Virus record (IMG/VR): IMGVR_UViG_3300034102_002786
Span: 18,413 to 82,412 of that record
Origin: a virus
Lineage: Duplodnaviria > Heunggongvirae > Uroviricota > Caudoviricetes
Strand: one strand, 5' to 3'
Length of the DNA stretch: 64,000 nucleotides
Part shown: positions 1-48,887 of the stretch, piece after piece
Position numbering within the stretch: position 1 is the stretch's first letter
Layout: each line of letters opens with the position of its first letter
The notes under the pieces: model-generated
What the model saw: the letters and a program-made list of their open reading frames with translations, nothing else
What the model was told of the DNA's origin: nothing
The model's database searches: none
Position numbers and translations under genes: made by a program

Positions 1-2
1 TC

Positions 3-671
3 CGTAGTTACGATTTAGAAAATCCTTATCCAGAGGAAGGTTACAGACAAATGATAGCACGCTTGGCAGATGTAAACTTTGCGCCAACACAACTTTCCGC
101 TGAAAACTTAGATGCGGAAAGAGTAAAAGGAGATATTCATATAGTTGGAAATACTGTATTGGATAATCTCCTAAAGTATGACAAAGGTAGTTATGGTGAT
201 ACTATCTTAGTAACAATGCATCGTAGAGAAAACTTTTATTGGATGGATGAATGGTTTAAGCAGATTAATCAGTTAGCAATTGATTATCCACAGTATAAAT
301 TTATACTACCAATGCATCCAAATCCAAACGTTCAAAAGCATAAGGGGTTATTGACAAACATAAATGTTGTTGAACCCCTTACGCACGATGAAACTATTAA
401 CATTCTAAAGGATTCTAAGTTAGTAATAACTGATAGTGGTGGATTGCAAGAGGAAGGGGCTTTCTTTAACAAAAAAGTAATAGTTTGTAGAAAAGTAACA
501 GAAAGACCAGAGGGGAAAGGTTCTGGGCATTTATTTGTTTGCGAAACCCCAGAAAAACTATCCGATTTATTTTGTGAATTAGAAAAAAATCCGTATATTT
601 GTAAACCTTGTCCATATGGAGATGGGAAAGCATCGGAAAAAATTTATAAAATATTAAAAGATGAATTATAA
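3..671 (+). CDS. UDP-N-acetylglucosamine 2-epimerase (non-hydrolysing), C-terminal ~220 aa; the gene continues upstream of the window
   Basis: Reading frame is open to the window edge. Motifs HRRENF and DSGGLQEE are typical of the WecB/epimerase_2 family. Confidence 0.7.
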   Translation, partial: RSYDLENPYPEEGYRQMIARLADVNFAPTQLSAENLDAERVKGDIHIVGNTVLDNLLKYDKGSYGDTILVTMHRRENFYWMDEWFKQINQLAIDYPQYKFILPMHPNPNVQKHKGLLTNINVVEPLTHDETINILKDSKLVITDSGGLQEEGAFFNKKVIVCRKVTERPEGKGSGHLFVCETPEKLSDLFCELEKNPYICKPCPYGDGKASEKIYKILKDEL

Positions 672-1848
672 AGTTACGTTTTTAAATCATGCATCGTTTT
701 CAATTGAAACAGACAATTCAATTACATTAGTTGACCCTTGGTATTTTGGTAGAATATTCAATAATAGTTGGTCTTTACTTAAAGATACTGATGATAGTAA
801 AATTGATTATTCAAAAGTAAAATATATTTCGGTATCACATGAACACCCAGACCATTTACATTGGCCTACATTAAAATACATTAAAACAAAAACTGATAAC
901 GAAATTACAATTATATTTCCTCGTAGAACTAATCCAAATGTAATGGATGAATGTAAAAAGCTTGGATACAGTTTTGCATACATTGACCATTATATTGAAA
1001 CTGAAATAGAAGAAGGGTTTACAATAACAGCATTTCCTGAAGGACATGATAGCGCATTGGTTTATAGAATTGGTGATGATGTGATTTGTAATCAGAATGA
1101 TGCTTATTTAGATGATGAAGTTCTTCCTCGAATGAAACAAATGTTTCCTAAAATTGATTTATGGTTATTCCAATTTAGTTTAGCTGGTTATTATGGTAAT
1201 AGTACCGAACCAAATGCAATTATTGAAAAAGGTACAAAATTTCATATAGATAAATTTATTAGATACCAAAATTATCTTCAACCAAAAATGAGTGTACCAT
1301 TTGCTAGTTATGTTTATTTTTGTAAGCAATACAATGACTACATAAATGATTACGCTGTTAGTTTGAATGACTTACTTCCACTTACAAAATATAAAACTCA
1401 AATACCATTTTACAATGAAGAAATATCATTAACATCAAATGAAAATAATGATACCAATATTGTTAAATGGAATGATGTTATAGCAAATTGTAGAAAAGAA
1501 ATAACTACTGTTAGTGATTTCCCAAGCGAAGATTCTATTATAAATGAACTTAATAAATTATATGATTCGGGTTATAGAATAGAAGGTCCTGGTATGGTAA
1601 TACTTGAATTTTTTGATTATAGTAAAAATTTACTTATTGATACAAAGAATAAACAATTTGTGTTTATAACTAAAGAAGAAACACCAACCCAATGGATAGC
1701 TGGTATTTTGCCCGGAGAAGAATTGATGGCTTATTTAAAAACTCCTTGGGGTGGTGATACACTAAACATAACCGGTGCTTTTATTAAAAAACATCAACAA
1801 TTATGGCACATTTTTTTAATGGCAAGAGAACATTTATACCATAGATAA
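661..1848 (+). CDS. MBL-fold metallo-hydrolase domain protein
   Basis: HEHPDH (HxHxDH) metal-binding motif near the N-terminus. Overlaps the upstream stop, as in a tightly packed operon. Confidence 0.5.
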   Translation: MNYKVTFLNHASFSIETDNSITLVDPWYFGRIFNNSWSLLKDTDDSKIDYSKVKYISVSHEHPDHLHWPTLKYIKTKTDNEITIIFPRRTNPNVMDECKKLGYSFAYIDHYIETEIEEGFTITAFPEGHDSALVYRIGDDVICNQNDAYLDDEVLPRMKQMFPKIDLWLFQFSLAGYYGNSTEPNAIIEKGTKFHIDKFIRYQNYLQPKMSVPFASYVYFCKQYNDYINDYAVSLNDLLPLTKYKTQIPFYNEEISLTSNENNDTNIVKWNDVIANCRKEITTVSDFPSEDSIINELNKLYDSGYRIEGPGMVILEFFDYSKNLLIDTKNKQFVFITKEETPTQWIAGILPGEELMAYLKTPWGGDTLNITGAFIKKHQQLWHIFLMAREHLYHR

Positions 1849-1849
1849 T

Positions 1850-2632
1850 ATGAGAAATAAACAATTTCAAAAAGAACTAACTTTTTTCTTAAATAAATTA
1901 AGAAATAACCAAAACTTTGCCTTCGTAAGATTTTCTGATGGTGAGCAATATATTCTTGATAACCAAGAATTAAAATTAGATGATAATCTTATTCAAATTG
2001 GTGAGCATAAGCAAGGTGGTTTATATAAATCGCAAGATTTTAAACACTTTGACCCAATAGAACATGCACATATTAGAGAATTATTATTAGAATCTGCGAA
2101 ACATAAACAATCAGAATACTATAAAGGAATCGGATGTGTTTGTTGTAATGGTAGAGAATATGTTGACAAACAAATTAAAATGTTTAATGGTGATTCTGAT
2201 GATTTAACTTGGGCAAATCTATGGGTTAATGGAAATTATCCAACATTTATAAGTTGGGTACTACCAGAACTTTATAATAAAAATTGTGTTATGGTTTGTC
2301 ATAAAGATGCCGATACATCCAAACTACCATTTGTTGTAAAAGATTTTAGAGTTGGTTACAATGCTATGGTAAATGATTTGCATGTAATTGATGAAATTGA
2401 TAATTGGATTACGGAAAATAAAATAGAAAATCACGTATTTCTTTTCTCAGCATCATCATTTACAAATATAGCTACTTATAAACTATATAAAAAACACCCA
2501 AATAACACCTTTATTGATATTGGTACTTGCTTAACACCATTAATGAAAATGCCAACAGAAAGAGATTATCTTCAAAGGTTTTGGTATTATAGAGGTGGTG
2601 GTGACCTTCAAAAAATATGTATATGGAATTAG
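1850..2632 (+). CDS. hypothetical protein in the glycan locus
   Basis: 260-aa ORF packed against its neighbours; no motif recognised. Confidence 0.5.
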   Translation: MRNKQFQKELTFFLNKLRNNQNFAFVRFSDGEQYILDNQELKLDDNLIQIGEHKQGGLYKSQDFKHFDPIEHAHIRELLLESAKHKQSEYYKGIGCVCCNGREYVDKQIKMFNGDSDDLTWANLWVNGNYPTFISWVLPELYNKNCVMVCHKDADTSKLPFVVKDFRVGYNAMVNDLHVIDEIDNWITENKIENHVFLFSASSFTNIATYKLYKKHPNNTFIDIGTCLTPLMKMPTERDYLQRFWYYRGGGDLQKICIWN

Positions 2633-3234
2633 TAGAATGTACGAAAGACTATTGGGAGTTTGTTAGAAAGCTTCGAATGGATGGTAGAGTAATTGATGGC
2701 TTTTTACAAACAACTCCAATTACCGAAGAACAACAGATAAAGTATATGACAGATAATTCACAACATTATCGTATTGCTTTATTAGATGGTAAGCCCGCAG
2801 GATATGTTGGTGTGATTGAAGATGATATTAGAGTATGTACCCATCCTGATTTTTTTGGAATGGGAGTTGGTAAGTTTATGATAAAATCAGCTATGGCTAT
2901 ATGGCCAACTGCATACGCTAAAGTAAAGCATGGTAATATTGCTAGTGATAAGTTATTCATTAGTTGTGGGTTTGAAGTAAGTGGTAGGGATGAAAACTTC
3001 ACATACTATAAACTAAAAAATAAAATGGTTAGCTTAAAAAGTTCAATTACACAAAAAGGAAAATATGTTTCTAAGATTCTACACTTTGTTGGTGGAGAAA
3101 AAAGAACATTTAATGGAGTTGATACTGATTCAATTAAGCAGGGACAGTTCACAAAGTTTGAAACAAAAGATGGTAGACTTGTTATGATAAATGATAAGAA
3201 TATCCTTTGTATAGAAATAATAAAAGAAGATTAA
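2617..3234 (+). CDS. GNAT-family N-acetyltransferase (putative)
   Basis: GMGVGK resembles the acetyl-CoA-binding motif A. Size and position in a sugar-modification operon fit. Confidence 0.45.
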   Translation: MYMELVECTKDYWEFVRKLRMDGRVIDGFLQTTPITEEQQIKYMTDNSQHYRIALLDGKPAGYVGVIEDDIRVCTHPDFFGMGVGKFMIKSAMAIWPTAYAKVKHGNIASDKLFISCGFEVSGRDENFTYYKLKNKMVSLKSSITQKGKYVSKILHFVGGEKRTFNGVDTDSIKQGQFTKFETKDGRLVMINDKNILCIEIIKED

Positions 3235-3235
3235 C

Positions 3236-3868
3236 ATGATTAAATTACACAACCCATACAAAATCGTAAAGATGTTTGAGGAAGAAGTGGCAGAGTACAC
3301 TGGAGCTCCTTTCGCTATTTCAATTGATAGTTGCACAAATGCACTATTCCTTATTTGTAAGTACTTAGAAGTTAAAGAGGTAACCATACCATCTAAAACT
3401 TATCTATCAGTACCACAATCAATCATCCACGCCGGTGGTGAAGTTATATTTGATAGGAGACCTGAAACAAATCATTGGGTTGGGGCTTATCAATTGAAAC
3501 CATATCCAATTTGGGATGCAGCTAAAAGATTTACTCAAGGTATGTATCAACCCGGAACTTATATGGGATTATCATTTCATATTAAAAAGTTACTTCCAAT
3601 TTGGAAAGGTGGTATGATTCTTACTGATGACCCTAAAGCAGCTGAATGGTTTAAGAGAGCAAGATATGAGGGTAGAAGTGAGAAGTATTATAAGGATGAT
3701 GATATTGAGTTCTTAGGTTGGAATATGTATATGACTCCACAACAAGCAGCACATGGATTGGCAATGATGCAAAACTTACCTTTACACAATTCGGACCAAG
3801 GTGAATTGAATGGCTATAGAGATTTAACCGAATTCACTGTTTTCAAAAATAATAAAGTTATACAATAA
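3236..3868 (+). CDS. DegT/DnrJ/EryC1/StrS-like sugar aminotransferase (short form)
   Basis: DSCTNALFL and WDAA...GGMILTDD segments resemble the PLP sugar-aminotransferase fold. The ORF is only 210 aa, so it may be truncated. Confidence 0.4.
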   Translation: MIKLHNPYKIVKMFEEEVAEYTGAPFAISIDSCTNALFLICKYLEVKEVTIPSKTYLSVPQSIIHAGGEVIFDRRPETNHWVGAYQLKPYPIWDAAKRFTQGMYQPGTYMGLSFHIKKLLPIWKGGMILTDDPKAAEWFKRARYEGRSEKYYKDDDIEFLGWNMYMTPQQAAHGLAMMQNLPLHNSDQGELNGYRDLTEFTVFKNNKVIQ

Positions 3869-4725
3869 TGATAACATTCCATAGATTAGGAGAAAATGGA
3901 AGATTAGGAAATCAATTATTTCAATATGCTGCTTTAAAGGGGTTGGCTACTAAGAATGGTTACCAAATGAAAATACCAAACCCACAAACTATGAGCTGGC
4001 ATGGTCAGATTTCTTTGTTGGATAAGTTTAATATTAATTGTGAATATTTGACTCAAGAAGATGCAAATAAATTACAAAACTTATATGAAGAACCAACTTG
4101 GCAAAAATATGACTCAAACTTCTTTAGTGTACCAGACAATACAACAATAGATGGGTATTATCAAAGTATATTTTACTTTGAACATATAGCTGAGGAAATT
4201 AAAAAAGAACTTACTCCAAAGAATGAATATTTGGATAAAGGAATGAACTATATTGATTTCTTAAAAGAGCAACATCAATGTGAAATTGTTAGTGTGCATG
4301 TTAGGAGAGGTGATAATATGACTAATGGGCAAACTGGATTGATTCAAGCGTATGAACCTGATGGAATGTATGAAACTTATTTCAAAGAAGCAAAGAAAGT
4401 ATTCGATGGAAAGAATGTAAAGTTCTTAGTATTCACCGGTGGGCAGAGATTCAATGAAGACAATAGTATTGATGTTGATTGGTGTAAACAATTCTTTGGC
4501 GAAGATGGATTTCTTTTTTCTGAAGGACAGGAACAAATTGATGATTATTGTAGAATAATGAGTTGTGACCATAATATACTATCACATGCAAGTAGTTTCG
4601 GATGGTGGGCAGCATATGTTAATCCAAACCCAAACAAAATAGTTGTAGCGCCAGAATGGTATCACCCCGATGAACCAACTTTAAAAAGGGAAAAATTTTA
4701 CCCAAAAGAATACATTTTAAAATAA
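3868..4725 (+). CDS. glycosyltransferase family 11 (alpha-1,2-fucosyltransferase-like)
   Basis: N-terminal GRLGNQLFQYA and internal HVRRGD are the GT11 signature motifs. Confidence 0.75.
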   Translation: MITFHRLGENGRLGNQLFQYAALKGLATKNGYQMKIPNPQTMSWHGQISLLDKFNINCEYLTQEDANKLQNLYEEPTWQKYDSNFFSVPDNTTIDGYYQSIFYFEHIAEEIKKELTPKNEYLDKGMNYIDFLKEQHQCEIVSVHVRRGDNMTNGQTGLIQAYEPDGMYETYFKEAKKVFDGKNVKFLVFTGGQRFNEDNSIDVDWCKQFFGEDGFLFSEGQEQIDDYCRIMSCDHNILSHASSFGWWAAYVNPNPNKIVVAPEWYHPDEPTLKREKFYPKEYILK

Positions 4726-4730
4726 AAACA

Positions 4731-5432
4731 ATGGAATTAATATTTGATATAGGATTTAACGTTGGTGAATTTACACAAACATGCTTTAACAAATTCCCAA
4801 ATTGCTCAGTAGTGGCAGTTGAAGCTAATCCGGATTTAGCGGCTAGAGTTTCAAATCATTTTTATACAAACTACAATTTTACACTTTTAAACAATTTAGT
4901 TTCCAATAAGGAAGGAGACATGGTTGATTTTTACATATCAAAATATGCAACAGGTGTATCAACGGCTTCAACAACCTTTATGGAGAATTCTAGATTTACA
5001 AAAGGAAGTAAAAATGTTGAAGCAAATTCAATTAAATGGGAAGCTCCTATTAAAATAGAATCTATAAGTTTGGATAGTATGCTTGAAAGATTTGGTATAC
5101 CCGATTTAATAAAAATTGATGTTGAGGGATATGAATTAAATGTGTTGCAGGGACTAACACAAAAAGCAAATGATATTTGTTTTGAGTGGCATGAAGAAGA
5201 AGCAGAACAATTATATAAAATATTAGACCATTTGGAAAGTTTGGGTTATGACCAATTTGGTGTCATTGGCTGGTTTGATGAAGGTGACGTATTTCCTAAA
5301 GCAACATTTTCAGATAAGGGAGACCCATATTTGGAATACCCAAAAAACTTTTACAAAAGAAGTGAATTGGAATTGGAAAAAATAATTAATTCAGAAAGAC
5401 GTATAAATTATGGTATGTTTTTCGTAAAATAA
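4731..5432 (+). CDS. FkbM-family methyltransferase
   Basis: DIGFNVGEF and IKIDVEGYELNVLQG are FkbM-domain motifs. Confidence 0.6.
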   Translation: MELIFDIGFNVGEFTQTCFNKFPNCSVVAVEANPDLAARVSNHFYTNYNFTLLNNLVSNKEGDMVDFYISKYATGVSTASTTFMENSRFTKGSKNVEANSIKWEAPIKIESISLDSMLERFGIPDLIKIDVEGYELNVLQGLTQKANDICFEWHEEEAEQLYKILDHLESLGYDQFGVIGWFDEGDVFPKATFSDKGDPYLEYPKNFYKRSELELEKIINSERRINYGMFFVK

Positions 5433-5439
5433 TAAATGA

Positions 5440-6366
5440 ATGAAAATAGTAGCAGAACATAGTGGAGAATATGGCGATGTCATAAATAGTTTTTATAATT
5501 TAGAAAGATTTGATGATAACTCTGAAACAGAAGTATTATTTCAAGGATATGCAACATCAATTAATTCAGAACTAAAAGAAAAATATAAAAACTTTAATAA
5601 ACGTACATATCTTAATTTAGAAGCACCTTGTGCATATTGTAGTACAACTAATTGTAATGATGAGCAAGAGTATTTTACACATGTATATACGTTATGTCCA
5701 TATACATGTGATTGGATGAATAAAAAAAGTTCTACAAAATTTATACCAATACCATTCCCATATGCTAAAGAATCTTTTGAATCAATTGATTACACTGCCG
5801 AAAAAACATATGATGTAATTTATATGGGTCATTTATTAGGACAGGAGCATTTTAAAATAATTGATATAATGAAAAATTACAATTATGTTCATGCATCCAT
5901 AAGCGGCTATCAGGCACCATATACACCAACCCATATTAATATTCAAAGTAAATTGAAATGGGATATACTTTCCAAAAGTAAAGTTTCAATAGCAATGAAC
6001 TTAGCACCAATTAATAATGGACATTCTGGTTTTATAACCAAATATGATGGTTGGCAAAACAACCAAGCATTTAAAGATTTGGAAAGTGGATATATACCAC
6101 AATTTAAACCAAGAGTGATAGAATCTATGGTTTGTAAAACTTTGGTTTTGGTAAAATATGACCAATGGAATGTTATAGAAAATTGGTTCACGCCAAACGA
6201 ACATTTTATATATTGGTATAACTTAGAAGACCTTTTTTATAAATTATATCACATTATTCATAACTATAAATCATATCAACCAATTGTAGATGCTGCATAT
6301 GAAAAAGTAAAGGAATACGAGATTGAAAAAATATATCAAAAAATGAAAAATTATGAATCACTTTAA
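5440..6366 (+). CDS. hypothetical protein in the glycan locus (possible glycosyltransferase)
   Basis: 308-aa ORF in operon context; no motif recognised. Confidence 0.45.
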   Translation: MKIVAEHSGEYGDVINSFYNLERFDDNSETEVLFQGYATSINSELKEKYKNFNKRTYLNLEAPCAYCSTTNCNDEQEYFTHVYTLCPYTCDWMNKKSSTKFIPIPFPYAKESFESIDYTAEKTYDVIYMGHLLGQEHFKIIDIMKNYNYVHASISGYQAPYTPTHINIQSKLKWDILSKSKVSIAMNLAPINNGHSGFITKYDGWQNNQAFKDLESGYIPQFKPRVIESMVCKTLVLVKYDQWNVIENWFTPNEHFIYWYNLEDLFYKLYHIIHNYKSYQPIVDAAYEKVKEYEIEKIYQKMKNYESL

Positions 6367-7081
6367 ATCAAAGTTTTTAGGAAATGAAATTTTACTATCA
6401 GATAAATGTAACTCTATATGGGGTGCTTCTCGTGGTGGTGAAATTTATGATGAGCAATTAATAGCAACTTTTTATAATAATATAATCTTTAACAGAGATA
6501 CCATTAATTTTTTTGATATAGGTGCTAATACTGGTAGTTTTATATTTTTACCAATACTTAATAAATCAATTAAATGCTATGCATTCGAACCAAATCCATT
6601 GGCATTTGAAGCATTAGAAGAAAATATTAAACTTAATGGTTTAGAAGATAATGTAAAACCATTCAACTTAGGAATGTGGTCAGAAAAAAAAGAATTGGAA
6701 TTAAAAGTTCCTTTAGATATGACAGATAGTGGTTTGGCAACGTTAGGAGATAACCCATCAAGATTTCAGTATGATAATAAATCTGGTGAATACAAAAACT
6801 TTAAAGTAAATTGTGAAACAATAGATGATTTAATGGAATCTTTACAATTAGAAAGTTTAGACCTTTTAAAAATTGATACGGAAGGTGCTGAACTTAACAT
6901 CTTAAAAGGTGCAGAAAAAACTTTAAGAGAATATCAACCATCAATTCTTTTGGAATATGATGACAAAAATACAACACAATTTGGATATAAAAAAGATGAT
7001 ATAGTTGAATTATTAAAATCATATGGATACTCAACATTCAAACTTATGGCATCTTCCGATTTATACGCAAGTGTTCTTTAA
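6353..7081 (+). CDS. FkbM-family methyltransferase
   Basis: FFDIGANTGSF, CYAFEPNP and LLKIDTEGAELNILKG are FkbM-domain motifs. Confidence 0.65.
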   Translation: MNHFKSKFLGNEILLSDKCNSIWGASRGGEIYDEQLIATFYNNIIFNRDTINFFDIGANTGSFIFLPILNKSIKCYAFEPNPLAFEALEENIKLNGLEDNVKPFNLGMWSEKKELELKVPLDMTDSGLATLGDNPSRFQYDNKSGEYKNFKVNCETIDDLMESLQLESLDLLKIDTEGAELNILKGAEKTLREYQPSILLEYDDKNTTQFGYKKDDIVELLKSYGYSTFKLMASSDLYASVL

Positions 7082-7092
7082 AAACAAAAATT

Positions 7093-10662: not shown

Positions 10663-10663
10663 T

Positions 10664-11068
10664 ATGACAGAAAGAAAGTATTTACCTACATTAAGTGAAT
10701 TAGTTGACCGTTTAAGTATCGTTCAATTAAAAGAAGTATTCATTACCGAACATAAAGAAGAATACGCGGAAGAAATAAAAGCAATTGTGCATGATATTCA
10801 ATTGTATTTGGATGAAAGTAAAGAACCAATTACAGCTGAAACAATCAGAGCGATTATAGTTTTATCACAAATGAACTTACATATTTGGCATAACGAATCA
10901 AATTATCGTAAGGGAATTAAAGATGGTAATAATTTAGAATTAACACATGGATTAAATGGAATCCGTAATGTTGCTAAAAACAAAATTCAAGAAGTAATGG
11001 GTGGTAGAAAAGATTATAAGATTGATTGCTTAGCAGCAGAATTTAAAGATTGGGAAATTAGTTGGTAG
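10664..11068 (+). CDS. hypothetical protein
   Basis: 134-aa ORF in operon context. Confidence 0.5.
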   Translation: MTERKYLPTLSELVDRLSIVQLKEVFITEHKEEYAEEIKAIVHDIQLYLDESKEPITAETIRAIIVLSQMNLHIWHNESNYRKGIKDGNNLELTHGLNGIRNVAKNKIQEVMGGRKDYKIDCLAAEFKDWEISW

Positions 11069-11069
11069 T

Positions 11070-13201: not shown

Positions 13202-14427
13202 TGGCACAATATCAACGTATAACATTTATTATACCTTGCCGAAATAATTTAAAATATTTAAAGCAAGCAGTTAATAGTATTGAAGATTGTTATGGGGATA
13301 CTCATAACATAGTAATATTAGATGATGCTTCTAATGATGGAACTTGGGAATGGGTAAACAACCTAAATAAACCATACATTAAAACATATAGGAATGGTTC
13401 TGATAATAGAGTAGGACATACTGTACTTTATGATATTGGTATTAGATTAGCCGAAACTCCGGTAGTAACTATATTACATTCGGATATGATTGTAACTCAA
13501 AACTATGTTGGGAATATGCTAAAACATTTAAAACCAATGAGCGTAGTTTCAGCAACTCGTATTGAACCACCATTACATCCACCTGGTCCTGAAAAGTATG
13601 TAATGGATTTTGGTATGGAGCCGGAATCATTTGATAATGGTGCATTCCAAAAGTTCGTTTATGAAACCGAATATGTGATGGAAGATAAAACAACAAAAGG
13701 TATCTTTGCACCTTGGATGTTATATAAAGAAGATTTTGTTTGTATTGGTGGACATGACCTTTTATTCGCACCAATGGAGTTGGAAGATTCTGATATATTC
13801 AATAGATTTCATTTACAGCAATATGAGTTAATACAAAGTAGAGATGCTTTTGTATATCATATGACTTGTAGAGGTTCACGTTTCAAAGATGGCATTGAAA
13901 TAGAAAAGGTAATTGATTTACCAGATGGAACAAAATGGTATAAACCAAAAGATTCTGAAGAATATACAAAACTTCGTCAAAACAAATTTAGAGAATGGTG
14001 GAGAAAATGGCATACTGATGTTTTACATGATGAACTTATGATGCCAATTGTACCAAACAGATACGATACCTCATTTGTAGTTCATAATTGTACACCTTAT
14101 TTGTTAGGTGTTTTAGAACCTTGGTGTGACCATATTTACGTTGATTGTGATTTTTCTGCTTATATAGCAAACGAAGAAAATCAATCAATGTTCAAAATAT
14201 CAGAAAAGGTTCATAACATAGGAGATTTGATGAGAGGTGATGTACAAATATTGTTTGATGGCTCTAAATTAAAAAATGAACACTATGGGCAGTTTATAAA
14301 AAACATACCATTTATAATTCAACAAACGGATTCAATTGGTAGTTTTGAATGGGATATATTCCAAATACATATACTTAATTTAAGGACAAAAGATATGGTC
14401 CCACCATTTTTCAAAAACGTATTTTAA
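13201..14427 (+). CDS. glycosyltransferase family 2
   Basis: ITFIIPCRNN...ILDDASNDGT is the GT-A fold signature. Confidence 0.65.
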   Translation: MAQYQRITFIIPCRNNLKYLKQAVNSIEDCYGDTHNIVILDDASNDGTWEWVNNLNKPYIKTYRNGSDNRVGHTVLYDIGIRLAETPVVTILHSDMIVTQNYVGNMLKHLKPMSVVSATRIEPPLHPPGPEKYVMDFGMEPESFDNGAFQKFVYETEYVMEDKTTKGIFAPWMLYKEDFVCIGGHDLLFAPMELEDSDIFNRFHLQQYELIQSRDAFVYHMTCRGSRFKDGIEIEKVIDLPDGTKWYKPKDSEEYTKLRQNKFREWWRKWHTDVLHDELMMPIVPNRYDTSFVVHNCTPYLLGVLEPWCDHIYVDCDFSAYIANEENQSMFKISEKVHNIGDLMRGDVQILFDGSKLKNEHYGQFIKNIPFIIQQTDSIGSFEWDIFQIHILNLRTKDMVPPFFKNVF

Positions 14428-14428
14428 T

Positions 14429-15277
14429 ATGAATATAATTGTAACAGGAGGAGTTGGTTTTGTTGGAACTAATTTAGTAAAAAGGTTAAAAGAAGAAGGG
14501 CACAAAGTAATTGTAATAGATGATTATTCTGTTGGAGTGGTTGATAATCAAATTGAAGGAGTAAGATACCTTCCTATGAATGTAGAGCAAATTGATTTTA
14601 TCAAAGGCGATGAAGTTGATTTATGCTTTCACTTAGCAGCATTAAGTAGAATACAACCATCATTTGAAACTCCATCGGATTTCTTTAGAGTAAACGTAAG
14701 TGGTACTGAAGCTGTATGTGATTGGGCTAGAAAGTGGAATGTAAAAGTAGTATATAGTGGTTCATCTTCACAATGGCATGACCCATTTCAATCACCTTAC
14801 GCAATGTATAAAAAGTTAGGTGAGGATGTATGTAAGATGTATCGTAAAGTATTTGGAACTAACATTGAGATTGCAAGATTTTATAATGTGTATGGTCCAT
14901 ACGAAATTACTGATGGTAAGTGGGCAGCTGTAATTGGTAAGTGGAGAGGTCAATGTATAACACAAAAAGCAATAACTATTGTTGGTGACGGTAAACAACG
15001 TAGAGATTTCACTCATATTGATGATATTGTTGATGGATTAATTAAAATAGGATTTGGAACTGAAACACATGAAGATGCATGGGAGTTGGGAACTGGTTTT
15101 AACTATTCACTTAATGAGGTTGCTGATATGTTTGTTAAAAAGTTTGGCGTTGATAAAGTTTATATGCCTAACCAAAAAGGTAATTATAGAGAAACTTGTA
15201 GAGAAAATAACGATGCTTTGGAGAGATTAAATTGGAAACCAACCGATAAATTAAAAGATTATATAAATTCATTATGA
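14429..15277 (+). CDS. NAD-dependent epimerase/dehydratase (short SDR)
   Basis: IVTGGVGFVGTNLV Rossmann motif. Confidence 0.7.
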   Translation: MNIIVTGGVGFVGTNLVKRLKEEGHKVIVIDDYSVGVVDNQIEGVRYLPMNVEQIDFIKGDEVDLCFHLAALSRIQPSFETPSDFFRVNVSGTEAVCDWARKWNVKVVYSGSSSQWHDPFQSPYAMYKKLGEDVCKMYRKVFGTNIEIARFYNVYGPYEITDGKWAAVIGKWRGQCITQKAITIVGDGKQRRDFTHIDDIVDGLIKIGFGTETHEDAWELGTGFNYSLNEVADMFVKKFGVDKVYMPNQKGNYRETCRENNDALERLNWKPTDKLKDYINSL

Positions 15278-16176
15278 AAAAAAGAACCCTAATTTGTATC
15301 CATGTAATGCCATCCGAAATGGAAATGTTTGAAAGACTTATGATTCAAATGCATAAAGCCTTTAAATATCTTAATAACGATGATGATGTTACAATTAAAG
15401 CCACACTAAACCTAAATCCAAAATTAACAGATTGGGATAATAGCGAATACAAACAATCATATTTTGTAGCCAGATTTGGTGTTCTTTTTAATGGATTAAA
15501 AAATATAAATGAAATTATATTAGATACATCTTGTTGGGGAACTACACAACAAAAGAGAGAAAGTTATAAATTGGATTATGACCAATTTATATTTTGTGAT
15601 ACTGATATTCTGTTTCACGAACATATGTTACGATACCAATTGGATGTATCTTACAAATTAGATGGTATTTATTTATTATCTCCATCTTTACCAAAATGGT
15701 GGGATACTAGTTGGGACTACTTAACACATTCTGAATATTTAGATAAACCATTTGGATATGCAATAGATTCAAAAGAAGTTATTGAAAATACATACAATCA
15801 AAAAATTAATTTTATAAGTGCAAAGCAAATTCCAACACTTAAATTTGGATGTGGAATGCATACTTTATATTCTAAATCATTTTGGGAATTAGTAGATATT
15901 CCGGAATCATTTGGGGGATATGGGCCTGAAGATACATATGGGATGGAAGCCGGAAAGATAGCAATAAAATTAGGATACAATGTACAACAATTTGTATTAG
16001 ATGGGGTTTATATAACAGAGGATTATATTAATAGGGTACCTGAATTTGCTGATAAAATAAAACCAATAGATAAGAAAAAGGAGTTTTATGATAGGGCCTA
16101 TGATATAGCAAGACAAGAAATTTCAACATTCGCTACAAAATTAATTCAAAAAAATCAACCTAATCTTCAAATCTAA
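15274..16176 (+). CDS. hypothetical protein (last gene of the glycan operon)
   Basis: 300-aa ORF; no motif recognised. Confidence 0.5.
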   Translation: MKKRTLICIHVMPSEMEMFERLMIQMHKAFKYLNNDDDVTIKATLNLNPKLTDWDNSEYKQSYFVARFGVLFNGLKNINEIILDTSCWGTTQQKRESYKLDYDQFIFCDTDILFHEHMLRYQLDVSYKLDGIYLLSPSLPKWWDTSWDYLTHSEYLDKPFGYAIDSKEVIENTYNQKINFISAKQIPTLKFGCGMHTLYSKSFWELVDIPESFGGYGPEDTYGMEAGKIAIKLGYNVQQFVLDGVYITEDYINRVPEFADKIKPIDKKKEFYDRAYDIARQEISTFATKLIQKNQPNLQI

Positions 16177-16202
16177 TATTTATTATCGTAAAATTAGATG
16201 AA

Positions 16203-16529
16203 ATGAATATAAAAGAGCAAATTAGAGCTATAATAAGAGAAAACTTCATAAAAGAGATGGGTATTAACGATACTCACCTTAAAGCTATTATGAAATACTA
16301 TGATAGAGGTACTCCATCTACAAAGAAGCAAGTAGCTATTGTAGTAACTGGAAAGAAAACATCAAATAGAGGTCAGATTCTAAATGACCTTATGGATATG
16401 GACTACCATGAAATTTTGGATACCGAAAAGAGATTGAAGTATGTAAAAGAATACTTCGATAAGAAAGGACAAGAAAGAGTTGCAGCAGCGTTACCTCAAA
16501 CTGAAGAAGAACCACAAAAAGACATCTAA
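16203..16529 (+). CDS. hypothetical protein
   Basis: 108-aa ORF. Confidence 0.45.
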   Translation: MNIKEQIRAIIRENFIKEMGINDTHLKAIMKYYDRGTPSTKKQVAIVVTGKKTSNRGQILNDLMDMDYHEILDTEKRLKYVKEYFDKKGQERVAAALPQTEEEPQKDI

Positions 16530-16841
16530 ATGGAAAACATATATTCGGTATTAATAACGGCAATCACAGTATTAAGTGGAACAACCGCATTTCGTTACTA
16601 TGAAAAGAGAGCAATGCGTAAGGAGAAAGATGATGAGTTTATCAGACATGATTGCAAAGACCGTATTACTAAATTAGAAGCACTTCTCGCCGCATCTTCC
16701 AGAGAGAAGGATGAATTACGAAAGATGGTTTTGGATATGACAGCTAAAGTAGCTGAATTGAGTGTTAAAGTGGAATTCCTTACCAAAGAGAATGATAAAT
16801 TAGTAAAGACTCCAAGAAACAAAAAATTATTAAACGGATAA
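16530..16841 (+). CDS. hypothetical protein with N-terminal transmembrane helix and coiled coil
   Basis: 103-aa ORF; hydrophobic N-terminus followed by a heptad-like region. Confidence 0.45.
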   Translation: MENIYSVLITAITVLSGTTAFRYYEKRAMRKEKDDEFIRHDCKDRITKLEALLAASSREKDELRKMVLDMTAKVAELSVKVEFLTKENDKLVKTPRNKKLLNG

Positions 16842-16844
16842 GAA

Positions 16845-17135
16845 ATGGCAAATGTATCACTTAAATCATTATTAGTAGAAGTATCTAATCCTAAATTGGA
16901 AAAGATAGTAAAACAAACTTTAGGTAGTAAAGTTCGTCTTGAGCACTTTAAGGATAAAATGTGGATTGTAGCTCCGGGTGATTTTTATTCTAAGACCAGA
17001 TTAAATCAAATGGTAGATGATTTAATTGAAGCTATACCAGCAGCAATGTTAGCAGCTCCCGTTGGTGATAGAGGACCTATACGATTAGGTACTGGTGGAG
17101 CTACTGAAGGATTTATTGTAATTAAATTAAAATAA
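16845..17135 (+). CDS. hypothetical protein
   Basis: 96-aa ORF. Confidence 0.45.
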   Translation: MANVSLKSLLVEVSNPKLEKIVKQTLGSKVRLEHFKDKMWIVAPGDFYSKTRLNQMVDDLIEAIPAAMLAAPVGDRGPIRLGTGGATEGFIVIKLK

Positions 17136-17144
17136 TAGGTTTTA

Positions 17145-17876
17145 ATGCCAATCTCAAGAACTTTATTTACTGAAGATAAGAAGTTAAGGGTATTTGATTT
17201 TGATGATACACTTGTCAAAACATCTTCTTTTATATATGTAACTCATAAAGATGGTAAGAAATCAAAATTAAGTCCTGGTCAATATGCTGTTTACAAAGAA
17301 AGACCTGGTGATGTATTTGATTATGCCGATTTTCAAAAGGTATCAAATCCAAAGTTAATTAAAGGGTATTTTGAATTATTAAAAAGAATGTCTGCATCTG
17401 ATAGCGGTAGAACTATTTACATTCTTACTGCTAGGAGTGCATATAAACCTGTTTATGACTTTATTAGAGATTTAGGAATTCGTAATTTAAATGTTGTTGC
17501 TTTAGGTGATGCTGATCCTGAAAAGAAAGCAGACTGGATTGAAGCAAAAGTAAGGGATGAGAAGTATGATGATGTTTTCTTTGTAGATGATTCAATTAAA
17601 AATGTTGAGGCAGTACGAAAAAGATTAAAAAAGTACCCAAACATAAAACAAAAGATTCAGCATGTAAAATCAAAAGAAGAATCTCAACCTAAAGTATTTA
17701 ATCCAATATCACAAAATTGGCATTCTTTTATGCAGAAATCACAAAAAGAAAAAGATACGATTTTAAATAAAAGAATTAAAAATCCTGAAACAAACAAAGA
17801 TATAAAAATTGCATCTGCTTTACGTTATGATAAAGACTCCAAAGTTTATAAAGCAGCTATACAACAAATTAAATAA
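17145..17876 (+). CDS. HAD-like phosphatase (putative, PNK-phosphatase-like)
   Basis: VFDFDDTLV is a DxDxT HAD motif I near the N-terminus. Confidence 0.4.
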   Translation: MPISRTLFTEDKKLRVFDFDDTLVKTSSFIYVTHKDGKKSKLSPGQYAVYKERPGDVFDYADFQKVSNPKLIKGYFELLKRMSASDSGRTIYILTARSAYKPVYDFIRDLGIRNLNVVALGDADPEKKADWIEAKVRDEKYDDVFFVDDSIKNVEAVRKRLKKYPNIKQKIQHVKSKEESQPKVFNPISQNWHSFMQKSQKEKDTILNKRIKNPETNKDIKIASALRYDKDSKVYKAAIQQIK

Positions 17877-17879
17877 TAT

Positions 17880-18152
17880 ATGGGAGTATCAATAGTTATA
17901 GTGGACTGTACAAAGCAGGACATAAATAAGGCTCTTAAAGAATTCAAAAGAAAGGTTATTAAGTCTGGGCATATAATAGAATTAAAAAACCGAAAGGAAT
18001 ACACTAAGCCCACAACTCAAAAGAGAGAAGAAAAACAAAAGGCTATTCGTAGAAATCAAAGAGAAGTAATTTTGGACAAAATTGCTATCGGAACACTTTC
18101 TGAATCAGCATTGGGAACTAAGAAGAAGAAAAGGGGATTTTCTCAAGATTAA
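17880..18152 (+). CDS. hypothetical protein
   Basis: 90-aa basic ORF. Confidence 0.45.
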   Translation: MGVSIVIVDCTKQDINKALKEFKRKVIKSGHIIELKNRKEYTKPTTQKREEKQKAIRRNQREVILDKIAIGTLSESALGTKKKKRGFSQD

Positions 18153-18218
18153 AATCATTTCTTTTAGTATTTGAATATATTTACTGTTATAACATTACAA
18201 AAATAACATAAAAGAACC

Positions 18219-20609
18219 ATGTCATTAATATTAAGAATTCCTAAAGGCTCTCCACTTACAGCTTCCGAAATGGATGCCAACTTTTCTTATCTTGAAAATT
18301 TGATAAATATTGGAACATCCGGTACTGGCGGTTCTGCTGGCTCAGGTGGCTCATCTGGTTCAAGCGGAAGTAGTGGTACAAGTGGGTCAAACGGAAGTAG
18401 TGGCTCAAGTGGCTCTAGCGGTACTAATGCAAGTGCAGGTTCATCTGGTTCATCTGGTAGTAGTGGTTTATCACAAAATGGTACTGATGGTTCAAGCGGT
18501 TCAAGCGGCTCATCGGGTAGTTCAGGAGAAAGTGGTAGTAGTGGTTCAAGCGGCTCAAGTGGTTCATCCGGTCAAAGTGGGACATCTGGTGTAAATGGAG
18601 AAAATGGTACATTCTTTGGAACTTCGGGAAGTTCTGGTTCATCTGGAGTGAATGGTGTACAAGGTTCACCTGGTTCTTCTGGTTCAAGCGGCTCAAGTGG
18701 AGAAAGTAGTTCAAGCGGTTCAAGCGGTTCAAGCGGTTCAAGCGGAATTTCGGGAGATTCTGGTACAAGTGGTGTAAATGGTACATCTGGTTCTTCTGGT
18801 AGTAGTGGATTACCTGGTTCATCAGGTTCTAGCGGCTCATCGGGTACAAATGGTTCACAAGGAAGTGATGGCTCAAGTGGGTCATCAGGTTCTAGCGGTG
18901 GTCCGGGATTGCCTGGTACTGATGGTTCAAGCGGAAGTAGTGGCTCAAGCGGTACAAGCGGCTCAAGCGGAAGTAGTGGGTCATCGGGTAGTAGCGGTAC
19001 TGATGGTGCTGGTACATCTGGCTCGAGCGGCTCAAGCGGTACAAGCGGAACTTCCGGTAATGGTTCGCCAGGAACTTCTGGCACAAGCGGTACATCTGGC
19101 ACAAGCGGCTCATCTGGTGAAAATGGTACAAGTGGCTCAAGCGGTAGTAGTGGTTCATCGGGTACAAGTTTACTTCCATTATCAGGCAGTACAAATAATG
19201 GTCTAATAACTTATTTACCGGCTGGAAGTGGAAGTGTTGAAACTAATCTTACATTTGATGCAGTAACAAATACTTTATCCGTTTATGGTAAAGCACATAT
19301 TAGTGAATTTGTAAGTGCATCTGGGGTTTATTTATCACAATCAGCAAATCCTGAAATTGTTTCTCCATCATCGTTAAGTTTGACAGCAGCAACTGTAGTA
19401 TTAATTTCATCATCATCACTTAGGTTGGCATCTTTTACAAACGCTCAAACCAATAGTTTAGTATTAGGTGAGGGACAGTTGATTTATAATTCAAGTGAAG
19501 CAAAAATTATGGGTTATACGGATTCTAAATGGAGACCGATAGCTTATGATGAAATAGTAACAGCTATTAATACATTTACAGGTTCAGCTAGAATTGAATT
19601 AAATAATATAGAATCTTACACTGCTTCATTAAAAGCAGTAGCTATTGTTTCATCATCAACTCAAATACAAAACTATGATGTATTTGCTTTAAACTCAAAT
19701 TTATATGAATCAACTGGTTCTATAAAAGGAGAAATTTCGGCAATAGAATTATATACTGCTTCATTAAAAGCAGTAGATATTGTATCTTCATCAACCCAAA
19801 TATCAAACTATTATAAATTTGCAGAAACCGCATCGGCAAACACTTTTTATGGTACTCAAACAATTAGTGGTTCATTTAACTTAACCGGTTCAATGATACA
19901 AAGTGGATTAAGCACACTAATTGGTAACACTATATTAAGTGGTAGTATTCAAATGAGTGGGTCAACCGTTCAAACTGGAGACAACACGCTAATTGGTAAT
20001 ACTGTATTAAGTGGTTCTGTTTTTGTAAGTGGTAGCACGCACTTCCAAAATTCAATAATGACCGTAACGGGTTCATCATACTTTACTGGTTCAATGTATG
20101 TTGATGGTGATTTTTACAAAAATAGACAGAAGCAGTTTAATTTCCTATCATTGGTAAATACGGGTTCGTTATTACTAACACAAAACCAATTGTATTCCGC
20201 ATCTTTTGTTAATGGAGTATCACCATTATATGTAAAAAGTGGTATGTATTTAAGTGGAAGCGCTGGCGCGAATACTTATACGAAAATAGTTTTTGAACAT
20301 ACTGGTATTTACAACTTCCAATATAGTATTCAAATGGATACTAACGATAATCAGATTGCAACCCTTCATACTTGGTTTGCAAAAAATGGAACTGATGTTG
20401 AGTATTCTAACTCCGTATTTGGTGTAGCTAATAACGGATATAGTATTGGTTCAATGAATTTAATATATACTATGGAATCTGGTAGTTATATGGAGTTACG
20501 ATATGCAACTTCGGATACTAATTTAGAATTAGCAAGTGTTAGTAGTTCATTGGTTCCTGTTAGACCTATAGCGCCAGCCATCATAGCAACTGTAACACAA
20601 GTAGCATAA
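18219..20609 (+). CDS. collagen-like repeat fibre protein (putative tail or virion fibre), with an N-terminal attachment-like domain, ~300 aa of G-S/T-S triplets and a C-terminal globular domain
   Basis: 796-aa ORF. The N-terminus SLILRIPKGSPLTASEMDANFSYLENL resembles conserved phage fibre N-termini. Residues ~30-310 are uninterrupted Gly-X-Y triplets in which X and Y are almost only Ser, Thr, Asn, Asp or Glu. Confidence 0.75.
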   Translation: MSLILRIPKGSPLTASEMDANFSYLENLINIGTSGTGGSAGSGGSSGSSGSSGTSGSNGSSGSSGSSGTNASAGSSGSSGSSGLSQNGTDGSSGSSGSSGSSGESGSSGSSGSSGSSGQSGTSGVNGENGTFFGTSGSSGSSGVNGVQGSPGSSGSSGSSGESSSSGSSGSSGSSGISGDSGTSGVNGTSGSSGSSGLPGSSGSSGSSGTNGSQGSDGSSGSSGSSGGPGLPGTDGSSGSSGSSGTSGSSGSSGSSGSSGTDGAGTSGSSGSSGTSGTSGNGSPGTSGTSGTSGTSGSSGENGTSGSSGSSGSSGTSLLPLSGSTNNGLITYLPAGSGSVETNLTFDAVTNTLSVYGKAHISEFVSASGVYLSQSANPEIVSPSSLSLTAATVVLISSSSLRLASFTNAQTNSLVLGEGQLIYNSSEAKIMGYTDSKWRPIAYDEIVTAINTFTGSARIELNNIESYTASLKAVAIVSSSTQIQNYDVFALNSNLYESTGSIKGEISAIELYTASLKAVDIVSSSTQISNYYKFAETASANTFYGTQTISGSFNLTGSMIQSGLSTLIGNTILSGSIQMSGSTVQTGDNTLIGNTVLSGSVFVSGSTHFQNSIMTVTGSSYFTGSMYVDGDFYKNRQKQFNFLSLVNTGSLLLTQNQLYSASFVNGVSPLYVKSGMYLSGSAGANTYTKIVFEHTGIYNFQYSIQMDTNDNQIATLHTWFAKNGTDVEYSNSVFGVANNGYSIGSMNLIYTMESGSYMELRYATSDTNLELASVSSSLVPVRPIAPAIIATVTQVA
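18300..19200 (+). repeat. coding low-complexity repeat (GGN-AGY-AGY)n encoding (Gly-Ser-Ser)n
   Basis: Repeated ggttcaagcggctcaagtgg-type units. The repeat creates spurious ORFs in all six frames of the track. Confidence 0.85.
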
Positions 20610-48878: not shown

Positions 48879-48887
48879 CAAAAAAGA

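Follow-up and report, generated by a model that had tools for sequence, protein, structure and literature searches.

The collagen-like spore glycoproteins BclA of Bacillus anthracis and BclA3 of Clostridioides difficile have a common layout, in which a short N-terminal anchor is followed by a Thr/Ser-rich Gly-X-Y stalk and a TNF/C1q-like trimeric head. The glycan of BclA includes a methylated 4-amino-4,6-dideoxy sugar, the formation of which needs an aminotransferase, an acyltransferase and a methyltransferase. The subject of the present analysis is a stretch of 64,000 nucleotides (the window) from a tailed phage (Caudoviricetes; positions 18,413 to 82,412 of IMG/VR virus record IMGVR_UViG_3300034102_002786), in which a large island of glycan genes precedes the gene for a 796-amino-acid (aa) collagen-like fibre, the stalk of which is a candidate acceptor for the product of the island. 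Enzymes of the three types needed for the BclA glycan also occur in the island. All coordinates are window positions unless a locus label such as L001 is given, these labels denoting metagenome or IMG/VR loci.

By analogy, the closest proven mechanism is that of SgtA and BclA3. SgtA is a soluble GT-A enzyme, encoded beside bclA3, which in vitro places O-GlcNAc on Thr, and also on Ser, of the collagen repeats (PMC7157674). The adjoining of a soluble glycosyltransferase gene and a collagen-like gene in that system is echoed here by an island that ends 2 kb upstream of the fibre gene. The differences are that the repeats of BclA are Gly-Pro-Thr, whereas the window stalk has 6 Pro in 93 triplets; that the window system is viral, with a far larger island in which no SgtA-type GT-A plus TPR enzyme was identified; and that glycosylation of the stalk is here a proposal.

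Autonomous clusters for rare bacterial-type sugars (deoxy, amino and methylated), together with glycosyltransferases that decorate fibrils or capsid, are a feature of giant viruses (the chlorovirus capsid, the fibrils of Mimivirus and Megavirus), although those are eukaryote-infecting Nucleocytoviricota, whereas the window belongs to a tailed phage. In bacteria, the autotransporter heptosyltransferase TibC O-heptosylates many Ser of a repetitive surface adhesin in the cytoplasm at the expense of ADP-heptose, and the GT-D enzyme that has been characterised lengthens the O-glycan on an adhesin with serine-rich repeats.

In mycobacteriophages, virion proteins are reported to be glycosylated in the cytoplasm of the host by phage-encoded glycosyltransferases, with neither lipid carriers nor export genes involved (Freeman et al. 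2023), which resembles the arrangement proposed below. The enzymes there number two to four, and their targets are C-termini of capsid and tail-tube subunits in siphoviruses of Gram-positive-type hosts, whereas here a 25-gene island makes its own sugar nucleotides, a collagen-like fibre is the candidate acceptor and the phage is huge and aquatic. The 'host recognition clusters' of pelagimyophages, which comprise tail fibres and lipopolysaccharide (LPS)-type genes, have been read as changing the O-chain or surface of the host (PMC7029224), and host-surface change is likewise the reading given to the 13 glycosyltransferases and 22 cell-wall genes of cyanomyovirus S-SCSM2R (PMC12801897). Common to these phages and the present locus is a hypervariable island mixing tail-fibre genes with glycosyltransferases and deoxy-sugar or heptose enzymes. 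Those host-recognition islands lie in the T4-like structural region, between VrlC and gp14, whereas that of the window lies between replication genes and S21 in a different jumbo lineage, and the two reports make no link to collagen-like stalks, GT-D or TibC-like enzymes. The statement of a first-pass annotation, made by a model without database searches, that self-encoded fibre glycosylation is essentially undescribed for phages of Bacteroidetes is overstated: large glycan sets beside tail fibres have already been described for pelagimyophages and cyanomyophages, in which they were read as host-surface change. The fusion of HAD and nucleotidylyltransferase domains (HAD-NTP) in the island has counterparts with 58-62% identity in Synechococcus phages S-8S55, S-PRM1, S-CAM9 and B3; no collagen-like open reading frame (ORF) was found at the B3 and S-CAM9 loci.

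The collagen-like fibre

The fibre gene and the parts of its product are as follows.

18219-20609, + strand: 796-aa fibre (Pfam Collagen 2e-32; PHROG tail-fibre families)
Residues 1-31: N-terminal anchor
Residues 32-317 (nucleotides 18312-19169): collagen-like stalk
Ser/Thr-rich repeat shaft
Approximately the last 165 residues (nucleotides ~20112-20606): TNF/C1q-like head

The island ends at position 16176 and the fibre gene starts at 18219, in accord with the 2-kb interval of the first-pass annotation. Its estimate of about 95 G-X-Y triplets with X and Y almost only Ser or Thr was likewise close, since 93 were counted, mostly Ser/Thr, with X being Ser in 53 and Thr in 23 (76 of the 93) and Y being Ser in 68. 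As for the 'collagen periodicity without proline' that had been proposed, the G-X-Y periodicity is clear, but with 6 Pro in the region the stalk is proline-poor rather than proline-free. The repeat is kept at the protein level, the synonymous codons being mixed.

An AlphaFold2 model of the last 287 residues, with a predicted local distance difference test score (pLDDT) >90 over the head, exhibited a jelly roll of the TNF/C1q type. Among its best PDB matches, BxpB/ExsFA, the C-terminal domain of BclA (3TYJ, 2R6Q, 1WCK; TM ~0.66), F-BclA and C1q-like proteins had E ~1e-6 and TMt 0.64-0.74; the others were TNF ligands and the lactococcal phage 1358 receptor-binding protein. The succession of anchor, collagen stalk and C1q-like head therefore corresponds to the layout of BclA and, to judge from the modelled head, the 796-aa product is very probably a receptor-binding virion fibre.

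The non-collagen part of the fibre has 372 metagenomic homologues, modular fibres with swapped stalks and heads, most of them without a collagen region. The first ~30 residues (MSLILRIPKGSPLTASEMDANFSYLENL) constitute a motif that also opens fibre-like ORFs in unrelated phage contigs, where, by ORF order and composition only, these adjoin other large candidate virion genes in what appears to be a structural module. A query consisting of the N-terminus and the collagen region retrieved two unrelated phages only, which share just the 26-aa anchor motif.

The glycan island

Window ORFs were assigned to families by Pfam and NCBIfam hidden Markov model (HMM) searches, with PHROG used for the fibre and others. 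The portion of the island in the window, positions 1-16176, consists of 19 contiguous genes on the + strand, nearly all of them HMM-confirmed sugar enzymes, and none of the 19 products has a transmembrane segment.

1-671, +: UDP-GlcNAc 2-epimerase (WecB/NeuC-type), 3' two-thirds of the gene (Pfam Epimerase_2 1.6e-40 over 51-671)
661-1848, +: metallo-beta-lactamase-fold protein, 395 aa (Pfam Lactamase_B_3 1.5e-9)
1850-2632, +: GT-D-fold (DUF1792-like) glycosyltransferase, not FkbM (AlphaFold2 model and Foldseek; invariant D30-G31-E32)
2617-3234, +: GNAT N-acetyltransferase (Pfam Acetyltransf_1 5e-6), with a probable role, on family grounds, in amino-sugar N-acylation
3236-3868, +: short (210 aa) DegT/DnrJ/EryC1-like sugar aminotransferase (Pfam DegT 8.7e-23; partial NCBIfam PseC, LegC)
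3868-4725, +: GT11, alpha-1,2-fucosyltransferase family (Pfam Glyco_transf_11 9.3e-23, full length)
4731-5432, +: FkbM methyltransferase 1 (Pfam Methyltransf_21 2e-18)
5440-6366, +: possible GT-B-type glycosyltransferase, a weak match (Pfam Glyco_trans_1_2 1.7e-5, barely over cutoff)
6353-7081, +: FkbM methyltransferase 2 (Pfam Methyltransf_21 3e-25)
7093-8046, +: GDP-L-fucose synthase-like SDR, a GDP-4-keto-6-deoxyhexose or heptose 3,5-epimerase/4-reductase (NCBIfam GDPFucSynFcl 5.7e-84; full-length match of 282 bits, under the 500-bit NCBIfam cutoff)
8046-8762, +: FkbM methyltransferase 3 (Pfam Methyltransf_21 2.4e-8)
8759-9730 and 9727-10662, +: two SDR nucleotide-sugar epimerase/dehydratases (Pfam Epimerase 6.6e-49 and 7.5e-33; no NCBIfam equivalog reached)
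10664-11068, +: 134-aa protein, no Pfam hit (in 8/80 related loci at 94% identity)
11070-11828, +: PfkB kinase resembling RfaE/HldE domain I, heptose-7-phosphate kinase (NCBIfam rfaE_dom_I 2.6e-37, below cutoff)
11825-13201, +: fusion of a HAD (beta-phosphoglucomutase-like) domain and a sugar-1-phosphate nucleotidylyltransferase (Pfam HAD_2 2.7e-29, NTP_transferase 5.7e-12; PDB matches 4EVW and HddC-type 5XHW/6JQ8)
13201-14427, +: GT2 with a C-terminal extension of ~190 aa (Pfam Glycos_transf_2 5.3e-16 over residues 9-112)
14429-15277, +: third SDR epimerase/dehydratase (Pfam Epimerase 2.5e-41)
15274-16176, +: 300-aa conserved island protein with a DxD motif (no Pfam or PDB sequence or profile hit)

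The HMM results bear out the first-pass count of about 19 consecutive + strand glycan genes, nearly every ORF from 51 to 16176 having a confirmed family, and support the GT, SDR, PfkB, HAD-NTP, DegT and GNAT assignments made there, inclusive of the three extra SDR epimerase/dehydratases. The 'UDP-GlcNAc 2-epimerase fragment' is indeed an epimerase, although the gene is no fragment and is merely cut by the window edge, being complete (335 aa) on same-strain contigs (L001 5797-6804, L009 9004-10011). Three FkbM methyltransferases were found rather than four, the supposed fourth being the GT-D-fold enzyme. The third starts at ATG 8046 in metagenome gene calls (238 aa in L001 and L009), whereas the mechanical ORF runs from GTG 8010. 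The DegT-like protein retains the 'SFHIKK' lysine motif despite its 210 aa, and this length is kept in 13 related loci at ~87% identity.

The evidence for the GT-D assignment is structural. The product of ORF 1850-2632 had no Pfam match at E <= 0.01 and no PDB sequence or profile match, and its AlphaFold2 model (pLDDT 92.5) gave, with Foldseek against the PDB, significant matches only to the DUF1792 structures 4PHR and 4PFX (E 5e-6, probability 1.00, TM 0.55 and 0.53). The fold and the position of the acidic D-x-E motif are those of GT-D, the D-G-E motif concerned being invariant across 40 homologues, whereas identity is 14% and the Pfam model misses the protein. Together with its homologues it makes up a clade specific to phages, with at least 308 metagenomic members that carry no annotation. 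The 15274-16176 product, in which D109 and D111 are invariant in 29 homologues, is probably a GT-A-type glycosyltransferase, as its motif suggests.

At family level, the activated-sugar enzyme types encoded would be those for a 2-epimerised N-acetylhexosamine, a fucose-type GDP-6-deoxyhexose, an NDP-heptose or similar sugar (PfkB plus HAD-NTP) and an N-acylated 4-amino-deoxy sugar. As regards heptose supply, the RfaE-domain-I-like kinase and the HAD/HddC-like nucleotidylyltransferase are present, and a GmhA isomerase was not seen in window scans. For tailoring and transfer there are the three FkbM methyltransferases and some ten soluble glycosyltransferases (GT2, GT4-like, GT11, GT-D and the DxD protein).

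Same-strain contigs place the start of the island ~6.6 kb upstream of the window, giving a total of ~25 genes in 22.7 kb. The six extra genes code, in order, for a GT4-like protein (460 aa), a 435-aa GT-B-like protein, a 160-aa protein, a GT2, a 333-aa protein and a second GT2; dUTPase, clamp loader and PD-(D/E)XK nuclease genes form the upstream flank. The first of the six is intact on two contigs and split into 72-aa and ~390-aa ORFs on a near-identical third (L001 248-1613 versus L009 3438-4820), which is either a population-level frameshift or an assembly error. On the other side, the island is followed by the S21 region, the fibre, an APS-kinase-like gene and HNH.

16203-18152, +: three small ORFs, a HAD-like protein (17145-17876) and a ribosomal protein S21 homologue (17880-18152) (Pfam; order conserved in related loci)
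20657-21073, +: APS-kinase-like P-loop kinase (Pfam APS_kinase 3.4e-6)

The S21 homologue lies directly upstream of the fibre gene, a position kept in several relatives, and in many relatives the APS-kinase-like gene directly follows the S21/fibre slot; a role for its product in glycan sulfation is conceivable.

The HAD-NTP fusion is the most conserved island gene, with 435 relatives in IMG/VR, and the best 80 of these (72-92% identical) define the related islands considered here. Around it the content is hypervariable, GT11 being present in 6-7, FkbM methyltransferase 1 in 4 and PfkB in 6 of the 80 loci, and the recurrent core consists of the GT4-like, 435-aa, 160-aa, GT2 and DxD proteins (the last in 42-46/80) together with the downstream small genes and the HAD-like protein. 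Such hypervariability is consistent with a product that is exposed at the surface and, along with the fibres, subject to diversifying selection. In the window island, Pfam detected no initiating phosphoglycosyltransferase, flippase, polymerase, ligase or ABC exporter, and none of the 1752 ORFs in the 80 related islands has five or more hydrophobic segments; the islands of this lineage therefore contain no Wzx, Wzy, WaaL or polytopic initiating transferase. The earlier description of a self-contained glycan factory thus holds for sugar-nucleotide enzymes, tailoring enzymes and soluble glycosyltransferases, with no genes for membrane export or polymerisation.

Fibre genes in related islands

Related loci were retrieved with two seeds, the HAD-NTP gene (54 loci with the internal slot, 23 with the downstream slot) and the sister fibre of L015 (18 lineage loci), and collagen-like fibres were located in them by direct triplet counting. 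Fibre genes occupy two slots, an internal one between the 160-aa gene and a subtilase or GT2 gene, and a downstream one, after HAD/S21, in which the fibre of the window sits. All 18 loci retrieved with the sister fibre have a collagen-like fibre in the internal slot, in each case co-oriented with the island glycosyltransferase genes and flanked by them on both sides, and these sister fibres have the N-terminal motif of the window fibre and 60-160 G-T/S-S triplets. With the HAD-NTP seed, a collagen-like fibre was present in the internal slot in 5/54 loci and a fibre in the downstream slot in 7/23, one of the seven being collagen-like. The link between collagen-like fibre and island is recurrent, and at times intimate, without being universal. 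Ser/Thr-rich fibres of non-collagen type also flank the island (L012, 921 aa; L019, L020, L021, L048 and L075).

Whenever the collagen-like fibre is inside the island, it is followed by a subtilisin-family gene (Peptidase_S8, 3.9e-36; 520-620 aa; L015 3384-4949, L012 3531-5120, L107 6759-8633, L114 7573-9132), the product of which could be a fibre maturation protease; the window has no such gene.

Ser/Thr collagen-like genes and glycosyltransferases across IMG/VR

IMG/VR was scanned with a degenerate nucleotide pattern matching runs of eight G-[S/T]-[S/T] triplets, which yielded at least 120 loci. A collagen-like ORF was present in 97 of the 120 listed, with medians of 97 triplets, a Ser/Thr share of 87% at X and 85% at Y, and 0% Pro. 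Such genes occur on viral contigs of all sizes, many of them of 20-60 kb; Pro-free Ser/Thr repeats are common in viral contigs and therefore not unusual in themselves. Among the two nearest neighbours (149 ORFs at 80 loci), the leading Pfam families were Glycos_transf_1 and Glyco_trans_1_4 (5 each), 2OG-Fe(II) oxygenase (4), GT25, PfkB and GT9 (3 each), whereas 149 control neighbours at 120 loci chosen by a random 14-mer included no glycosyltransferase family twice or more. BLAST probes gave 21 matches among 488 as against 0/734 in the control, 4 of the 21 being self hits of collagen-set probes; those taken from the island only gave 8 against 0.

One such neighbour (L126; 781 aa; 2019-4364) consists of a GT-B domain, homologous to the 435-aa island gene (E ~1e-13), fused to a TibC homologue (4RAP, E 2.5e-54, residues 24-379 of 406). 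The reverse test was conducted on 80 loci out of >576 TibC-like stretches in IMG/VR, with 120 random loci as control. A Ser/Thr collagen-like ORF lay 36 bp-5.8 kb away in 17/80 TibC-like loci as against 0/120 (Fisher 5.5e-8, an indicative value), and the 17 positives span 11 of the 18 clusters formed at 70% identity. Homologues of the PfkB kinase of the window (36-44% identity) accompany the TibC-like gene in 38 of the 80 loci. Phage homologues of the TibC/AAH (BAHT) family are thereby encoded beside Ser/Thr collagen-like genes in many viral contigs.

Viral TibC-like genes are either stand-alone (~380 aa) or fused to an N-terminal GT-B domain (~700-780 aa), as at L126, L151, L171 and L363-L441, and are often followed at once by a giant Ser/Thr collagen-like ORF, the largest reaching 2567 aa, with >300 triplets (for example, L380 7005-9083 then 9184-14103; L399 1127-3214 then 3247-10950). 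Other large collagen-like proteins, of 2825 and 2537 aa with 408 and 204 triplets (L116-L120, 41-kb contigs) and of 1531 aa with 314 triplets (L122, 35-kb contig), have no island homologues within 10 kb, so that stalks of this kind exist also at loci in which no neighbouring phage glycan gene was detected. The 2OG-Fe(II) oxygenase (PF13640) was the third commonest neighbour family (4/149) although the repeats are without proline; it belongs to the superfamily of the prolyl- and lysyl-hydroxylase type.

Only one relative in the lineage has a TibC-like gene, that of L081, coding for an 813-aa protein with 48% identity in its C-terminal part and an N-terminus that, by eye, looks methyltransferase-like. 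This gene adjoins that of a 729-aa Ser-rich fibre without collagen repeats, the two lying at 8713-11154 and 6464-8653 (minus strand) respectively. A TibC-like enzyme was also sought in the island of the window and rejected, hhalign of the 333-aa protein and of the 5440-6366 product against the TibC-like profile revealing no similarity and tblastn being negative, as given below.

A model of fibre glycosylation and its alternatives

The model that we favour regards the island as a cytoplasmic assembly line of about 25 genes, the product of which would be a complex, partly methylated glycan of deoxy, amino and possibly heptose sugars. This glycan would be built directly on Ser/Thr side chains of virion fibres while they fold in the infected cell, the prime candidate acceptor being the proline-poor (Gly-Ser/Thr-Ser)n stalk of the 796-aa fibre, and the mode of action would be like that of BclA and BclA3. 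Glycosylated threonine can stabilise a triple helix without hydroxyproline, as in worm cuticle collagen; dense O-glycans may similarly stabilise and stiffen a helix poor in proline and hydroxyproline, and may also shield the fibre from proteases and tune its adhesion. The stalk is put forward as acceptor because of the fibre architecture, the synteny, the GT-D fold and the global association of collagen-like genes with glycosyltransferases. What the first-pass annotation proposed as a virion-glycosylation system accordingly stands as a glycan factory, its link to the fibre resting on indirect comparative evidence (the 18/18 sister loci, the GT-D enzyme, the C1q head and the IMG/VR enrichment), whereas the adjacency of island and fibre that it stressed is no conserved rule.

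A number of observations weigh against this model. The internal slot is without a fibre in 49/54 related islands and the downstream slot in 16/23; since most related islands have no neighbouring fibre, the island is independent of an adjacent collagen-like fibre, and genes may lie together in a hypervariable region because that region is plastic and not because they have a function in common. A glycan gene was nearby in only 15 of the 97 sampled collagen-like loci, so that phage-encoded glycosylation is no general requirement for Ser/Thr stalks, and the enrichment statistics, not being corrected for phylogeny or habitat, are indicative only. The window and ~10 kb of same-strain upstream sequence lack a TibC-like gene (tblastn with three phage TibC-like domains, E <= 1), and therefore no island enzyme can be named as the Ser/Thr-initiating transferase. 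GT11, WavE, GT31 and RfaE-like proteins are classic LPS or polysaccharide families, and homologous small clusters in cultured cyanomyoviruses lie among metabolic genes and not beside fibres. With all of this taken into account, the fibre-glycosylation model appears evenly poised between right and wrong.

Several of the same observations are what would be expected if the soluble glycosyltransferases were instead to modify lipid-linked LPS, O-antigen, capsule or S-layer intermediates of the host, for export by host flippase and ligase, with the effect that superinfection is blocked or progeny are kept off debris; island and fibres would then both track host surface glycans. This is the standard reading of similar islands (PMC7029224; PMC12801897), and it accommodates the LPS-type families (the RfaE-like kinase among them), the majority of relatives in which the island has no neighbouring fibre, and the occurrence of the same HAD-NTP fusion in the small GT/epimerase clusters of the cyanomyoviruses. 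Nor is the absence of transmembrane segments decisive, since peripheral O-antigen glycosyltransferases are also without them. It has, however, to contend with the lack of any initiating phosphoglycosyltransferase, flippase, polymerase, ligase or ABC exporter in 80 islands and of lysogeny genes in the window, and leaves unexplained the GT-D enzyme, the fibre genes situated between glycosyltransferase genes and the two-way enrichment of collagen-like and GT/TibC genes. Host-envelope remodelling, the main rival, is considered rather unlikely.

Virion glycosylation with another acceptor (capsid, decoration protein, sheath or other Ser/Thr-rich fibres from elsewhere in the genome), the 796-aa fibre being a mere neighbour in a plastic region, seems improbable. 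Capsid and tail-tube subunits are the targets in mycobacteriophages, as summarised in PMC12619734, most related islands have no adjacent collagen-like fibre, and both the non-collagen Ser/Thr-rich fibres flanking the island and the Ser-rich fibre beside the TibC-like gene of L081 could be accommodated; but the structural module lies outside the window and the association was measured specifically with collagen-like Ser/Thr repeats. The addition of sugars to hydroxymethylated phage bases, as a means of evading restriction, is very improbable: DNA can receive a variety of glycans from phage glycosyltransferases (Pyle et al. 2024, cited in PMC12619734) and the island adjoins replication and nucleotide genes (dUTPase, clamp loader, PD-(D/E)XK nuclease), but some 25 genes, inclusive of three O-methyltransferases, an aminotransferase, an acetyltransferase and about ten glycosyltransferases, go far beyond known DNA-glycosylation modules, no hydroxymethylase or thymidylate-synthase-like gene was present among the ~70 window ORFs scanned, the GTP cyclohydrolase I of the window may point to another base modification, and hypervariability between close relatives better fits a surface antigen.

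Source phage and other genes of the window

The window has a G+C content of 30-38%. Nearly every gene is on the + strand, and in many cases the stop codon of one overlaps the start codon of the next. ARAGORN detected an array of 27 tRNA genes covering nearly all amino acids (48807-56231), in which the call at 50378-50449 has an abnormal anticodon of two bases. Megablast of 21 kb of the window against the INPHARED phages gave no match, and thus no cultured close relative. The clamp loader encoded shortly before the window shares 38-44% identity with those of LR756508 (an uncultured 484-kb phage), Microcystis phage Mel-JY01, Ralstonia RsoM2USA and PA5oct-type jumbo phages, and exact copies of window proteins occur on many JGI and ENA metagenome contigs, some of the 0.2-1 Mb class, the longest among those listed being of 144 kb. 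The source is a huge (>200 kb), abundant, uncultured and apparently lytic freshwater phage, plentiful in the lakes of JGI samples 3300036398 and 3300042516; the dense same-strand operons, 27 tRNA genes, HNH endonuclease, tail-fibre modules and jumbo-phage-like clamp loader identify it as tailed, and origin from a giant eukaryotic virus was rejected on the same grounds.

No integrase, GtrA/GtrB-type membrane protein or lysogeny module was found by Pfam among the ~70 ORFs scanned in this 64 kb of a >200-kb genome, in keeping with what had been noted earlier. By way of contrast, the attribution to phages of Bacteroidetes is not upheld, the host phylum not being established: the S21 query gave only two weak cellular matches, to Maribacter (42% over 43 aa), whereas several other genes have cyanophages and pelagiphages as nearest cultured relatives and other markers are jumbo-like. 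Scans for sigma-70 promoters and terminators (15-24.5 kb) and for the T4-late element TATAAATA produced counts at or below chance.

Further genes of glycan-related families lie outside the island.

24358-25125, +: WavE-like (LPS-core-type) putative glycosyltransferase (Pfam WavE 9e-7)
39420-40163 and 41043-41801, +: two GT31-like (Galactosyl_T) genes flanking a TerC membrane protein gene (Pfam 1.2e-4 and 5.4e-5, near cutoff)
56704-57303, +: GT29-like protein (sialyltransferase family), 199 aa (Pfam Glyco_transf_29 4e-12)
57296-58597, +: cytidylyltransferase (CMP-ulosonic-acid synthetase type) fused to an RraA/aldolase-like domain (CTP_transf_3 1.2e-17, RraA-like 1.8e-27)

Pfam thereby corroborates both genes that the first-pass annotation had placed at 56.7-58.6 kb. 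The domain pairing of the last appears unusual, and the fusion might couple the synthesis of a keto-deoxy sugar acid to its activation.

Auxiliary genes typical of large aquatic phages include those for heme oxygenase and bilin reductase, S-adenosylmethionine (SAM) decarboxylase, a CobS-like ATPase (PHROG match), GTP cyclohydrolase I, TerC and NifU. The heme oxygenase gene overlaps that of the ferredoxin-dependent bilin reductase (44817-45954), which is 31-33% identical to pcyA-like genes of cyanophages and one pelagiphage. GTP cyclohydrolase I (30404-31030, 5e-52) might indicate DNA modification of the 7-deazaguanine type or folate or queuosine metabolism; no other que or dpd gene was identified among the window ORFs scanned. 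A SET-domain protein (58598-59020), SAM lyase (47950-48636), SAM decarboxylase (46344-46799), a NifU-like scaffold (35262-35660) and the TerC membrane protein (40391-41041) are also encoded, as is a 2OG-Fe(II) oxygenase (55053-55598), its gene lying among the tRNAs.

Implications

Phage virion glycosylation, giant-virus glycan factories, BclA-type glycoproteins and islands of fibre and glycosyltransferase genes are already known. What appears to be new is their combination, namely a 25-gene autonomous island with embedded fibres, a phage GT-D family, a BclA-like fibre and a two-way association of collagen-like genes with GT/TibC genes; a literature search, with most subscription journals outside its coverage, found no paper on glycosylated collagen-like tail fibres or phage TibC-type enzymes. 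The glycan gene sets of large aquatic phages have been catalogued for twenty years and routinely labelled as host-surface 'LPS genes' without test. The present data supply objects for such tests in the pairing of fibre and island, in the GT-D family with its at least 308 members, and in the >576 viral TibC-like genes, which have a candidate substrate within 6 kb in the 17 loci of 80 noted above.

If the fibres are decorated, host-range prediction that considers only the sequence of the fibre would overlook one layer of specificity, the hypervariable islands would be to phages what O-antigen loci are to bacteria, and (G-S-S)n stalks would show how collagen triple helices can form without hydroxyproline, which would interest those who work on biomaterials. 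A wider reading, which is somewhat doubtful at present, is that Pro-free (Gly-Ser/Thr-Ser/Thr)n fibres form a widespread class of phage glycoproteins with dedicated cytoplasmic O-glycosylation machinery, ranging from a TibC-like enzyme plus heptose kinase up to the 25-gene island, in which the glycan replaces hydroxyproline as the stabiliser of the triple helix and diversifies with host range. Were that so, fibre glycosylation would be a common and so far undescribed layer of phage-host recognition in aquatic environments.

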